Shown here: in pieces, positions 28 through 19,260 of the stretch | How the letters are laid out: each line of letters opens with the position of its first letter | Numbering within the stretch: the first letter of the stretch is position 1 | Assembly (NCBI RefSeq): GCF_006345805.1 | Contig: NW_021824117.1 | Location: forward strand, 1-19,675 | Reading direction: 5' to 3' | DNA: 19,675 nucleotides | Source of the DNA: Octopus sinensis | Lineage: Eukaryota | Notes under the pieces: model-generated | Seen by the model: the letters and a program-made list of their open reading frames with translations, nothing else | Told to the model about the DNA's origin: nothing | The model's database searches: none | Translations under genes and position numbers: made by a program

Positions 28-94
28 CCTCAGAATCGAGTCTCTGTATTAATGAGCAAATAAATAATTTGTCGTGTGTACTTCATCAGTGAGG
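28..94 (-). ncRNA. Degenerate minimal type-I hammerhead ribozyme (PLE-type)
   Basis: Minus strand reads CCTCA-CTGATGA-a-GTA...TAC-a-GAGAC-TCGA-TTC-TGAGG. Stem I is CCTCA/TGAGG and the CUGAUGA box is intact. The 3' core differs at two positions from GAAAC-TCGA-GTC. Confidence 0.5.
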
Positions 95-242
95 TCGCTA
101 AAATAAATACAATCTTAGCGACCTCTCTGATGAAGTACTGATGACAAATGATAAATGAAAGTATGTTGTCTATTGACTTATTACGCATGCTAGCCTCCGT
201 ATAAAGATTTTCTAAATTTGCTACCCTTATTATTTTCACAGT

Positions 243-590
243 TTATATATATATTATAATACATACATACATACATACACCCACACACACACACACAACA
301 CACACACACACACACACACACACACACACAAATATATATATATATATATATATATATATATATATATATATAAATATACATATATATATAGTATATACAT
401 GTATGTATATATATATAAATGTGTGGGGTGTGTATATATATGTATATATATATGTGTGTGTATATACATATATATATATATGTATATACACGCACACATA
501 TATATATACATGCATGTATGCATACATACATACATACATACATACATACTTAATACATACATATGTGTGTGTGTGTTGTGCGGGTGTGTG
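243..590. repeat. Compound (CATA)n/(CA)n/(TA)n/(TG)n microsatellite
   Basis: Directly visible. Overlapping ORFs are YI/CV/HT repeats. Confidence 0.95.
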
Positions 591-1439
591 TGGCGCGTGT
601 TAATTCTTCCTAATTGATAATTTTAATTTTAACTAAGTAGGAGATATTAAGGAAGTATATTTTATACCTGCTGGTGTACTGGTTATATCCTTAAAGTATT
701 ATTTCGTGATGTGCACACAGATACTCTGAGTTTACCTTCAGATATAATCATTGGTTATTTTTGTATTATCTGAAATACAATACCCGCATATCTATGAATC
801 CCCAAACTGAATTAGTATTGATTTCTATTATATATTTTGTATATTTCTAGATAAATATATGATAAAAAAAGATCCTCAGGGTACGTATGCAGATGCACAC
901 ATAATGCTAAAGGATTGTACCTGACTGATTCGGAAATTCGTTTTCCCAAATTATTTAAAGTTACACACATATACACACACACATATATATGAGTTAGAGG
1001 TTAGACAACCATCTAAGGGATAATAAATATCCAATATACTACTGGAGGGATAATATTTATATTCAAAGGCTTACTATGGCAAGGCAATAGTACAATGGAT
1101 AACAGGTACAAGTGGAGGTAAATAAAATTTTATCCAGAGTTTAAAGAGGCAAGGAAGAAAATGAGAGAAAGACTCCATTGACAAAACATCAGCAAGATCC
1201 ATTTATTAATTACAATCATAGGAATAAATAAATGAATAATAAATGACTACTTCTTCTTGCTTATATATGTATGATATAATATATATATATATATATATAT
1301 ATATATAATCAAATAAGCAACAAGAATGTGCTTATTTTATTATAATCACCCCGCAAAATTTTTATGGATAACACATACAAAATTCTGGTGCAACTCAGTT
1401 AAGTATCATATTCATTCGAATCTAAATTTTTGCTGAATC

Positions 1440-1932
1440 ATATTATTATATATATATATATATATATATATATATATATATAGTATATATATATATATAT
1501 ATATATATATATATAATATATATATATAGATATATATATATATATATATATATATATATATGTATATATATATTATGTATATATATATATATATGTTAAT
1601 ATATATATAATATATTATACATATATATATATATATATATATATACATATACATATATATATATATATATAACATATATATTATACACATATATATATAA
1701 ATATACATATATATATATATATATATATATATATATATATATACATATGTATGTATGCATGTATGTATGTATGTATATATGATGTATATGTGTGTGAGTT
1801 GTGTATGTGTATATATATATGTATATATACATGCATACACACACTCATACATACATATATATATATTGTGTGTGTTATATATTATATATATATGTTATAA
1901 TATATATATATATATATATATATATATATATG
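1440..1932. repeat. (TA)n-dominated microsatellite
   Basis: Directly visible. Confidence 0.95.
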
Positions 1933-3955
1933 TTTGTAACTTTGATAGGTTTCGGCCAGTATAGGCCCCAGGCCATGTCTAACTTAATAGCACCACCTGG
2001 TCAAGTCATTCAGTCACATATTGAGTACCACGTCTCACTCTAGCAAAGGGTTATTATTGTTGGAGACATACCCGGGTGTGTGAGGTTGGTCCGGGATTTT
2101 TTGAAGAAATCTGTCCAGTGAACTTTCAATTTTATGGGAACCATTTCCGTTTTGACGTATTTTGGTATGGTATTAAAGAGAGCTTTTGGTATGGTATTAA
2201 AGTAAAGTAGTTGTGACGTAATGTTGCTATGTGTCTTGAGTTCAAATTTTTGTGGTGAGCGGATACCACGGGGACCAAGTCTTGGATGGATTTTAAAATT
2301 GATGCCAACATCATTTGTGCAATATTGATGGAATATTTTCCACGTCACACAAATGGCGGTGTTGGAGAAAGTAGACGTTGAGTTTTTTAGTCAACCCCAA
2401 TAGTCAATGCCTCTCATGCCGCCTATCTTTCTTGTTATTGACCTCTGGAGTGCTTCCACTTTCATAATGAGTTGTTTCGTGTGGGGAGACCACAGTGGGC
2501 AACAGTACTCAAGGTGGGGTCGGACAAAAGTAGAGTAGAGAAGGATAATGTGGGCACCTCTAGACCGGAAAGTTCTCAGAATCCAGGAGCACATCTTGCG
2601 GGCCAAGCCAGCCTTGCTGTTTACGTGGGTCCTCCAGCTTAGATTGTTATCAACAATTACTCCAAGGTCTCTGGTGTTATTGGATGATACTATGCATATG
2701 GTAGTTTCCAAAGTGGATCAAATTAAACTTATCTTCATTTAAAAGCATATTGTTTTTTTCTTTCTATTGGACAATAGCAAACAGATCCGAAGGCATGTTC
2801 GGTCCTCCATACGGTTTATGGCTTTCTGGAGTTTGGAATCATCTGCAAAGATTTTCAATGTAGAATGTTTGATGACGTCTACTGAGTAATTGATGTAGCT
2901 AATGAAAGGGAGTGGGTCCAACACAATACCTTGTGGGACACCACTACTGACTTTGGTTAAGCTGGGTCGGATTCCCTCAAACACAACATGTTGGGTTCTG
3001 TTTGTCAGAAAACACTTTATCCACTTCAGCAGCTTTCCACGGGCTCCAATGTTGAACCGTTTCTTCAGCAGGATTTTGTGGTCCACTCTGTCAAATGCTT
3101 TGCTGAAATCAAGGTGTATGAGGTCAGTGTTGGGGCCCTCTCTCAACGCTTTTAAGATGTCATCAAAATGGTGCAGAAGCCGCGACACGCAGTCCCTGCC
3201 ATCAGGGAAACCATGCTGGTTGGGGTTCAGCAGATTGTTGTCTTCGAGGAATTGAGTTATTCGCGATCTCACCCCACTCTCAAATACTTTAATGATGTGA
3301 GAAGTGAGTGAAATGGGACGGTAGTTCACTGGAAGAGATTTGTTTCCCTTTTTGAAGACTGGAACGACAGACTGGGAAAGAAAATAATCAGGAATGTAGC
3401 CTGCATCAATTGAGCTTCTCCAGAGCTCAGTTAGAGGTGGGTGCAATTTGATGTCGATACATCTTCAGTACAGTGGCGGGGAACTCATCGGGACCTACTG
3501 CCGAGTTGTGCTTGATCTTATTTATTTCTGTTAGGATATCAGGGGCACCAAAATGTATGTCAGATATGGTTAGTTGTGGGTTCACATCACAGATATTAGC
3601 CAGATCAAACGCATTAGCGTTACTGAAAACAGAGCGGTATTGCCTCTGCAGTATCCTCGCACATGGATTTTGCATCTTCGTGTAGAGTGTTGTTCTCATG
3701 AACCAGAGGACCAACAGTGGAAGCAGTGACCTCATGTTTTGTTTTTTTTTTTTGCAAATGAAAAGAAGACTTTTGGATTGAGTTTTATTTTCTCCATGGC
3801 CCCAATTCTCCTCAGCTGCTCTTTGCTTGCTAATGATGGTCATCATGCTCTTTTGCGGGGTTGTGTCCTTTCGATTCGAGTGATGCAATGGCAGTGGAAT
3901 GGGTGCGTTGCTGCTGCAGCAGTATTTATGTTGATTGATTTTCTTGTTAATTCTA
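1933..3955 (-). mobile_element. 5'-truncated, frameshifted non-LTR retrotransposon (CR1/L2-group LINE): ORF2 reverse transcriptase plus 3' end
   Basis: Motifs across frames: IKLNPKVFFSFAK, VGPL, SAVGPDEFP, YRPISLTSHIIKVFE, QHGF, LDFSKAFDRVDH, SSGVPQG, IFADDSKL, RDLGVIVD, RPHLEYCCPLWSPH. Several frameshifts and deletions. Flanked by TA microsatellites. Confidence 0.92.
2739..3446 (-). pseudogene. LINE reverse transcriptase core fragment (235 aa open stretch)
   Basis: RT motifs LDFSKAFD, GVPQG and FADD in one frame, with frameshifts at both ends. Confidence 0.88.
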
Positions 3956-4061
3956 CATATTATGCTGTATGTATATAACTATGTATATATATATATATAT
4001 ATATATATATATATATATATATATATATATATAGATATATATATAATTAATTAATAATAAT

Positions 4062-17835: not shown

Positions 17836-18120
17836 AACAGGATCTCCCAGCAGCCCCCCTCTTGACCCAGAGCAGCACTACCTCCTCCAGGCACTTGAAG
17901 TAGGCCTCCGTGTTGAGTGTGAGGCTGTGTTGGAAGAGAAGTGGAGCCATAACGTCTCCATCACTAGCGATCACTCCAGACACCACGAGGTTGACTGGAT
18001 GTTTGACATTTACCACTCTCCGTTCCTGTCTTCAGATTGCACTCTCCTCCGTTTGACACAAAAACATTCTGAAATGTTCGTATGGGAGCTTCCAGCGCGA
18101 ATGCCAAGCAGTACAGCAAA
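17836..18120 (-). pseudogene. Internally deleted Tc1/mariner-superfamily transposase remnant
   Basis: [24 protein letters not shown]...[20 protein letters not shown] matches the K(H/F)PxxxMVWG segment between the first and second catalytic Asp. It is cut off before the QQD motif. Confidence 0.8.
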
Positions 18121-18125
18121 TGCCT

Positions 18126-18196
18126 TCTACTATGGCCTCGGGCCAACCAAAGACTTGTGAGTGGATTTGGTTGACGGAAACTGAAAGAAGCCTGTC
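18126..18196 (+). mobile_element. Short 3' tail of an interspersed retro-repeat
   Basis: ttgtgagtggatttggttgacggaaactgaaagaagcc followed by (TA)n. Recalled as a common cephalopod SINE tail, not verified. Confidence 0.4.
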
Positions 18197-18625
18197 ATAT
18201 GTATATATATATATATATATATATATATCTATATTATATAGATATATATAACATGTTTCTATGTATGCATGTATGTTTATATATATATATATATATATAT
18301 ATATATATATATATATATATATATATATATATATACAACACTACATACATATATATATAATTATATAATTATATTTATACATATATAATTATATAAATAT
18401 ATATACACATGTATATTTATATATATACATACATATAAATATATATACACATATATATTTATTATATAACTGACCAAACTCTCACCCATCAATTTCAGTC
18501 AAATTTATTTAATATATACTTAAACTATCTCAATACTACATTAATAATATTTTTAAAAATATCATTTATGTAGTCATATATATATATATATATATATATA
18601 AAAAAGCAACAAGAATGGATTAAAA

Positions 18626-18712
18626 TCTCGGTACAATTGTTTCGTACGAGGACATCTTTAATAAGCTACAAAAATGCAGTAAATATAGCTGGCTCGTACT
18701 CGTCAGCCGAAA
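18626..18712 (-). ncRNA. Type-I hammerhead ribozyme, intact (left arm)
   Basis: Minus strand reads TTTCGG-CTGACGA-GTACGAG...CTCGTAC-GAAA-CAATTG-TA-CCGAGA. Confidence 0.88.
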
Positions 18713-19172
18713 AAACATCAGAGATTCCCAAACATCAAAAGGGGTAGATACAAATGAGGGTGTAAGTTTAACTGCATTTGTACCCAAAATTTCTTCACAT
18801 AACTTGATTAATAATTCACTATGAACTATATGGACATGCACATATTCTGTAAGTTCAAGACTTTTCATCGGATCTCCAGGAATCGAACTTCTCTGTGATT
18901 CTTGTAAATTTCAATAACAATCTGTTCTTCTACACGATATGACAGTCACTTTGCTTCTTACTCGGATTCTCAGAAATTTCGCATGACTGTATCCAAAATT
19001 TCTTCACATAACTTGATTAACAATTCACTATGAGCTATATATGGACATGAACAAATTCTGTAAGTTCAAGACCTTTCATCGGATCTCCAGGAATCGAACT
19101 TTCTTCAATGCAGTTAAACTTACACCCTTATTTGTATCTACCCCTTTTGATGTTTGGGAATCTCTTATGTTT

Positions 19173-19260
19173 TTTCGGCTGACGAGTACGAGCCATCTAT
19201 ATTTACTGCATTTTTTGTAGCTTATTAAAGATGTCCTCGTACGAAACAATTGTACCGAGA
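19173..19260 (+). ncRNA. Type-I hammerhead ribozyme, intact (right arm)
   Basis: TTTCGG-CTGACGA(19179-85)-GTACGAG/CTCGTAC (7-bp stem II)-GAAA(19243-46)-CAATTG-TA-CCGAGA. Stem III palindrome is ACAATTGT. Predicted GUA cleavage after 19254. Confidence 0.9.

Follow-up and report, generated by a model that had tools for sequence, protein, structure and literature searches.

Introduction

Minimal type-I hammerhead ribozymes have been described in the pseudo long terminal repeats (pLTRs) of metazoan Penelope elements, including pairs on opposite strands, with counts of about 2,000 plus 1,300 in Schistosoma, 4,000 in coelacanth and 9,000 in Xenopus (PMC4209133). Inverted 5' copies and microsatellite targets are listed among the features of Penelope elements (PMC8557442), and two internal starts of the reverse transcriptase (RT), giving a 'tail', are described as unique to them (PMC11167929). 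For the hammerhead-bearing retrozymes of mussel and axolotl, Penelope elements have been proposed as movers, and the mobilising enzyme of animal retrozymes is called open in the same two papers (PMC7229834, PMC7761336); for vertebrates, a 2026 preprint derives the link to Penelope from co-occurrence and pLTR phylogeny only (bioRxiv 10.64898/2026.07.22.740005). A 2026 repeat annotation of Octopus vulgaris reports recently active Penelope families and leaves ribozymes unmentioned in its main text (PMC13282606), and a literature search that took in few subscription papers and no supplements or repeat databases returned no cephalopod hammerhead census and no shared unit size. Here we examine hammerhead motifs in a 19,675-nucleotide (nt) stretch of the Octopus sinensis genome (NW_021824117.1), hereafter the window, which is the entire contig G000:C588 within a 2.72-Gb assembly.

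The window carries eight hammerhead motifs that probably belong to six retroelement families with hammerhead-shaped ends. Three of these (B, D and E) would be truncated Penelope-like elements, and the other three (A, C and F) elements that encode no protein and probably owe their insertion to the same Penelope enzyme.

Results

Eight hammerhead motifs from six insertions

The eight motifs had first been proposed in a sequence-only reading of the window, and all of them were confirmed at the coordinates and strands claimed there:

28-94, minus strand: HHR1, family F, decayed (GAGA in place of GAAA in the core, broken palindrome), A.A at 10.1/11.1
5840-5893, minus strand: HHR2, family A, stem III ACCGGT, U17, A.A at 10.1/11.1
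5979-6032, plus strand: HHR3, family A, strict-descriptor match
8174-8212, minus strand: HHR4, family B, U3-A8 core, 2-bp stem II, stem III ACCGGT, C17
9439-9502, plus strand: HHR5, family C, stem III ACGATCGT, A17
17378-17419, plus strand: HHR6, family D, U3-A8 core, 4-bp stem II, stem III ACCGGT, A17
18626-18712, minus strand: HHR7, family E
19173-19260, plus strand: HHR8, family E, long stem II, stem III ACAATTGT, A17

Within this AT-rich window, which is dense with microsatellites and debris of long interspersed nuclear elements (LINEs), a strict type-I descriptor matched five of the eight motifs (5846-5887 minus, 5985-6026 plus, 17384-17413 plus, 18632-18706 minus and 19179-19254 plus), where 300 local dinucleotide shuffles averaged 0.003 matches. 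A medium descriptor, tuned only after the motifs had been seen, recovered seven with zero extra sites in the window, against 0.007 in 300 shuffles, so that the motifs survive the shuffled control that the sequence-only reading had called for. The core CUGANGA (or UUGANAA), GAAA and NUH is intact, in type-I order, in seven of the eight. The remaining motif, at 28-94, was recovered once two defects were tolerated (mean 0.025 in 40 shuffles); it is a decayed copy of the family F motif, for which most of 18 aligned family rows have GAAACTCGAGT. Core and palindrome alone, with no other stem criterion, returned seven motifs and one further site at 15512-15534, which has no stem I and was set aside as a chance match.

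A second proposed check, detection with Rfam, failed to find the motifs: of the 204 matches that the window gave at E<=10, the 150 listed include no hammerhead family, and none of six family loci reached the gathering score. The miRNA-family matches that Rfam did list lie below gathering score, mostly on microsatellites or inverted repeats, and were rejected.

The six sequence contexts claimed for the motifs turned out to be six distinct genome-wide repeat families. First-look candidates numbered 718 (A), 2,714 (B), 940 (C), 1,326 (D), 1,167 (E) and 302 (F); per family the best 40 were scored and 20 loci fetched. Eight motifs derive from six insertions because in A and in E the two motifs sit on opposite, inverted arms of a single insertion (198 nt at 96% and 179 nt at 98% identity, respectively). 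No window motif has a same-strand partner of its own family, and the A and E inverted pairs would fold as long hairpins rather than as dimeric ribozymes.

Ribozyme core and stem III

The palindromic stem III had been said to permit dimeric folding, and folding energies favour the dimer: in all five families computed, the intermolecular duplex lies at -6.4 to -10.0 kcal/mol and the monomer hairpin at +2.4 to +6.0 kcal/mol. Dimers between families that have ACCGGT in common were discounted by reasoning, on account of the stem I mismatch. Individual motifs show further peculiarities. The 8174 motif has an additional U between stem I and U3, common to most family B copies, and the 9439 motif has a stem I with just three contiguous pairs; U17 occurs in both window copies of family A, and C17 in 15 of 19 aligned family A copies. 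At 10.1/11.1, families B and E have G-C, families C and D have A-U, and families A and F have A.A.

All fetched loci together yielded 109 motifs in 30 clusters, not all of them independent, as overlapping loci were counted more than once, against 0.7 motifs per shuffled pass. With the core boxes, the palindrome and stem I used as anchors and all other positions left free, the 3-8 pair is Watson-Crick in 27 of the 30 clusters (20 C-G, 7 U-A) and C.A in the other three; 10.2-11.2 is paired in 28, and a non-G stands at position 17 in 29. At 10.1/11.1, G-C (9), A.A (7) and U.U (6) occur side by side, of which U.U is a known natural variant (PMC3088659). Within family F, 92.8% of cells pair, against 31-41% in slid controls. 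The core covaries between families (C3-G8/U3-A8) and not within family F.

Genome-wide scale

To place the window in its genome, forty 10-kb tiles (400 kb) were taken at round-number positions on 20 chromosome-scale contigs. The strict descriptor found five motifs there against none in shuffles, and the medium descriptor 11 motifs in nine tiles against 0.23. At the medium density of about 27 motifs per Mb, the whole genome would hold about 75,000 motifs (Poisson 95% interval 37,000-134,000), and the strict set would number about 34,000 (11,000-79,000). With seven motifs against 0.54 expected, the window, which was selected for its motifs, is about 13-fold denser than this sample; its density is no guide to the genome.

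Exact whole-genome counts are of the same order of magnitude as the tile extrapolation. Both core boxes with ACCGGT occur 12,224 times against 932 for the reversed pattern (some double counts), the 3' half GAAACRATYGTA 28,735 times against 1,980, the D half-motif 3,395 times against 3, and a family A 16-mer 129 times against 0, with one tandem pair. A core lies within 95 nt of the GAAACRATYGTA site in two of seven cases in the tiles and in five of six in other loci. The claim of a very large and diverse hammerhead population in this genome is borne out by the tiles and the exact counts alike.

These numbers also bear on whether the motifs could be chance folds of AT-rich repetitive DNA. Core boxes alone do arise in shuffles, at 0.3 per window and 8 per 400 kb, and the medium descriptor owes its form to the motifs themselves; the contrasts against controls nonetheless run from window to genome, the 3-8 pair covaries across families, and the shuffled and reversed-pattern controls rule this explanation out, leaving it a practically negligible probability.

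Penelope-linked families B, D and E

Three of the families are represented by the following elements:

8045-9405, minus strand: family B element, 5'-truncated, frameshifted and Penelope-like, with RT end, thumb, Cys-rich linker, GIY-YIG and pLTR
16803-17479, plus strand: family D element, 5'-truncated Penelope-like 3' end with a GIY-YIG C-terminal remnant
18601-18778, minus strand: family E inverted 5'-truncated copy, containing HHR7
18778-19315, plus strand: family E element, Penelope-like 3' non-coding end, with the open reading frame (ORF) in loci L165 and L028

Since Pfam returned no match on the Penelope pieces of the window, these were identified by tblastn with genomic copies. The coding remnant of B spans 8270-9412 on the minus strand (E 1e-136) and matches the RT end, thumb and GIY-YIG of a near-full copy in locus L161, which has a 1-kb partial tandem. 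In the genomic copies Pfam does detect RVT_1 (L161, E 2.6e-8) and GIY-YIG (L165, E 9.8e-5), and atlas placement groups the C-terminal half of family B with HTH_animal/GIY-YIG clusters (0.97). For family D, an endonuclease remnant at 16803-16988 on the plus strand (E 1.2e-8) lies 390 nt upstream of the motif, and such a remnant precedes the motif in 5 of 19 other D loci as well; the family E motif follows a Penelope ORF in L165 and L028. All three families have a fixed 3' end, variable 5' truncation, partial tandems and inverted 5' copies. B and D have the Cys-rich linker typical of Neptune, a putative clade label assigned by motif.

B, D and E are thus ordinary truncated Penelope ends, already-known biology. 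Some motifs of the window had been expected to mark such ends, and these three do, lying downstream of RT/GIY-YIG coding sequence. The accompanying claim that most motifs have no adjacent coding remnant stood only in part, as it fails for B and D, two of the six insertions, which have remnants in the window itself.

Elsewhere in the genome, many GIY-YIG loci (L168-L197) score identically and have open frames reaching 781-883 amino acids, which suggests a Penelope-like family that is young and possibly active. Every hammerhead found downstream of these loci has the U3-A8 core.

ORF-less families A and F

The elements of the other two types that surround HHR1, HHR2 and HHR3 have a different build:

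1-109, minus strand: family F element, truncated where the contig begins; ORF-less unit of 472 nt
101-237, plus strand: family F piece at the 5' junction, inverted and rearranged; half core CTGATGA at 128-134
5536-5950, minus strand: family A element, -104 to +312 of the predicted cleavage site; 470-nt ORF-less unit
5957-6158, plus strand: family A inverted 5'-truncated copy, -69 to +132

A near-identical contig, C2782 (L142), extends the family F element to about +162. Unit sizes follow from loci with two motifs: in L167 two A motifs lie 470 nt apart, the upstream one without its 5' half, and in L150 two F motifs lie 472 nt apart, with head-to-tail F copies in both L150 and L151. Where it is long enough, the sequence upstream of an A or F motif is the family's own downstream sequence. 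The units have a GC content of 34% (A) and 31% (F), and their longest stop-free frames are 73 and 58 codons, respectively. Against five Penelope protein pieces neither unit gave a match below E 0.03, and the two are not alignable with each other. The expectation that the genome would hold retrozyme-like, ORF-less elements is thereby upheld. Adjoining the upstream A motif of L167, a further hammerhead family with the odd-length palindrome ACTCGGAGT forms an inverted pair (L167:1400-1495).

Insertion anatomy was tallied for A (n=17), F (n=14) and C (n=16), dropping the window copies, the duplicates L011, L152, L155, L131, L135 and L136, and three F loci without central alignment (L142, L143, L156). 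A microsatellite directly follows the 3' end in 15/17 (A), 10/14 (F) and 15/16 (C) copies, and an inverted piece sits at the 5' junction in 5/17, 5/14 and 11/16. In A and F, the flanking microsatellites mask any target site duplications. Most copies end at one of two preferred points 140-310 nt beyond the motif; measured from the predicted cleavage site, the two 3'-end clusters are at +168/+312 in A, about +160/+242 in F and +142/+214 in C, resembling the two internal RT starts and the 'tail' of Penelope elements (PMC11167929). Copies exceeding one unit make up 3/17 of A, 4/14 of F and 0/16 of C; either a circular template or a linear multimer accounts for them.

Similar wrap-around was seen in five of 28 other motifs tested, with periods of 479 (L057), 468 (L012), 479 (L093), 456 (L171) and 289 nt (L154), where L171 is a distant F relative and the L154 period comes from a 42-nt repeat alone. 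A unit of 468-479 nt is therefore common to five families that are mutually unalignable by blastn. The cleanest retrozyme-like example among the loci examined is L093:85-1330 (G000:C1665). Here one insertion comprises about 2.3 hammerhead units of 479 nt, arranged head-to-tail and 99% identical, preceded by an inverted 5' piece and flanked by TA repeats. Five further ACCGGT-type loci, three of them A-like, showed neither an endonuclease nor wrap-around.

Could all six families be truncated ends of autonomous Penelope-like elements, with the 470-nt wrap-around being a partial tandem of internally deleted copies, made from a linear uncleaved RNA template with no circle and no need for ribozyme activity? 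The predominance of 5'-truncated ends in D and E would fit, as would the small amount of family A RNA and the unprocessed RNA that is the main substrate in vitro (PMC11167929), and with the best 40 candidates per family scored, a rare parent of A, C or F with an ORF could have been missed. Nevertheless, L167, L150 and L093 cover a full motif-to-motif unit without an ORF, the 468-479-nt unit recurs in five families that do not align, and cores and helices are maintained over about 30 clusters, which makes this explanation unlikely.

Far less probable still is that A and F are classical non-LTR retrozymes, that is, highly expressed satellite-like arrays, moved by a LINE, for instance one of the CR1/L2-like or R4-like elements of the window. 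Units that lack an ORF, have 30-34% GC and carry a type-I hammerhead, the LINE RT remnants nearby and the circular fold z scores (-3.1 for A, -2.0 for F) are what such elements would present. Against it, A and F occur as scattered monomers that, like Penelope insertions, have inverted pieces on their 5' side, two 3' ends and no poly(A) tail; dimers are rare, expression is apparently low, and no long arrays of A or F were seen in the loci examined.

Family C and its junction with family B

HHR5 lies in an element of a third kind:

9404-9713, plus strand: family C element, 309-nt, ORF-less, fixed 5' end

Family C is a 237/309-nt element of which all 16 counted copies begin at -93/-94, on a comparison ruler that started at -95; a copy found independently in L160 begins at -92. 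Pairwise comparison shows nothing shared upstream of this start except inverted copies, and the flanks differ. The search favoured copies spanning the entire query, so that shorter ones are under-counted. None of the 16 C copies wraps around, and a head-to-tail unit closed at the cleavage site was not encountered among them. C looks like a self-propagating short transcript of the pLTR type.

In the window, C meets B head-to-head at 9404/9405, at the truncated B 5' end and without a spacer, and occupies the place of the usual inverted copy. This single junction suggests a template switch within one insertion event. Relatives of the C 3' part that are older (74-81%) and have no hammerhead lie at 4062-4271 (minus), 4582-4715 (plus) and 5441-5557 (minus), and in L077 the C 3' part is preceded by a different hammerhead.

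Other repeats in the window

An inverted repeat pair at 4743-4975 and 5190-5420 surrounds a TA tract and contains an imperfect hammerhead-like core, CTTGAAAGA...GAAAATATT. A long inverted repeat with arms of about 60 nt and no hammerhead core lies between TA tracts at 7100-7264, and is possibly a miniature inverted-repeat transposable element or a truncated inverted pair. Two decayed LINE copies, 84% alike (RVT_1, E 7e-23), which we take to be CR1/L2-like, are at 2040-3978 (minus) and 9794-10464 (plus). LINE fragments with restriction-like endonuclease motifs and no Pfam match, presumably R4/Dong-like, lie on the minus strand at 11265-11800, 13199-13459 and 13930-14460. A repeat resembling a short interspersed nuclear element, with a tRNA-like end, is present as a minus-strand copy at 16227-16595 and a 66-nt inverted piece at 16759-16824, and is widespread among other loci.

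Discussion

How might one enzyme produce insertions of such different build? We propose that a Penelope RT-endonuclease would nick AT-rich DNA, begin at two internal RNA sites and copy back through the hammerhead. Penelope RNA as template would then give truncated ends, a circular or multimeric 470-nt RNA would give permuted copies that sometimes exceed one unit, and on the short C RNA the RT would continue to the RNA 5' end. The hammerheads would cleave solely as dimers through their palindromic stem III, in multimeric transcripts, and dimer cleavage would set the unit length. The copies in the window itself are likely inert fossils. A bolder version, possible but somewhat short of probable, joins these elements into one picture: size-constrained hammerhead RNA circles of about 470 nt, in at least five unrelated families, may live as parasites of Penelope RT-endonucleases, being reverse-transcribed in rolling-circle fashion from two internal starts, and together with Penelope ends they may form one of the densest animal ribozyme populations, invisible to Rfam and tolerating A.A or U.U at 10.1/11.1.

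Several points weigh against the insertion scheme that we propose. Cleavage, circular RNA and transposition of these families are predicted from sequence, and hammerhead cleavage is dispensable for insertion in vitro (PMC11167929). An autonomous partner for A, C or F was not found in the loci examined: 20 loci per family had no same-strand endonuclease or RT upstream, and downstream of 30 surveyed GIY-YIG loci there were other hammerhead families but no linked A, C or F. In family A, tandem dimers are rare (one pair among 129 exact sites), and 23 of the 28 other motifs show no wrap-around. Three cDNA runs held 28, 21 and 20 family A reads per 11.5-12.9 million records, mostly partial, less than 95% alike and running into microsatellites, and in these runs, whose library selection is not known, read ends did not pile up at the cleavage site; the counts argue weakly against abundant A RNA and are compatible with non-polyadenylated circles. 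Covariation of stems among genomic copies, a check that the sequence-only reading had suggested, came out negative, being no greater within family F than in shuffles, which is expected if copies decay neutrally. Finally, the idea of a single B/C insertion event is weakened by unequal divergence, with B 95% identical to its copy in L161 and C 98% to that in L127.

The hammerheads described here resemble those reported from metazoan Penelope pLTRs in their type-I topology, short palindromic stem III and U3-A8 core variant (here in B and D), as well as in the many families per genome, the mainly solitary motifs and the opposite-strand pairs 100-700 bp apart (PMC4209133). They differ in number, estimated here at tens of thousands with descriptors that are not identical, and in the core: the same report describes a conserved G10.1-C11.1 and one bulged base after A9, whereas here G-C is present in 9 of 30 clusters and A.A or U.U in 13 of 30.

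With endonuclease-positive (EN+) Penelope-like elements of the Neptune and Penelope/Poseidon clades, the shared traits are an RT with C-terminal GIY-YIG, partial tandems, an inverted 5'-truncated copy, two 3' ends with a 'tail' and AT-rich or (TA)n targets (PMC8557442, PMC11167929). The tails are 72-145 nt in C, F and A against 30-40 nt in the EN+ elements, and one junction here links two different families, B and C. Named RNA start sites suit the existing in vitro Penelope assay (PMC11167929), and the genome supplies about 30 or more natural hammerhead families in which core tolerance and the dimer requirement could be mapped.

Like metazoan non-LTR retrozymes (PMC7229834), A and F are units of low GC content that have a type-I hammerhead but no ORF and share their genome with Penelope elements, the proposed movers; a few of their copies are arranged head-to-tail. 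Families dominated by monomers, as here, have been described as well (bioRxiv 10.64898/2026.07.22.740005). Those retrozymes are defined by tandem arrays and abundant circular RNA, whereas the octopus copies lie dispersed, in permuted form, and themselves show the signatures of Penelope insertion, and unrelated families have a 468-479-nt unit in common. The link between Penelope and hammerheads and the existence of Penelope-derived retrozymes are already in print, and half of our observation is ordinary Penelope biology; the new part is the ORF-less 470-nt class with Penelope insertion marks, together with the fixed-start C element, and the scale, shared unit size and insertion anatomy appear to be new. 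ORF-less units that bear Penelope-specific insertion marks provide direct anatomical support for the mobilisation of retrozymes by Penelope.

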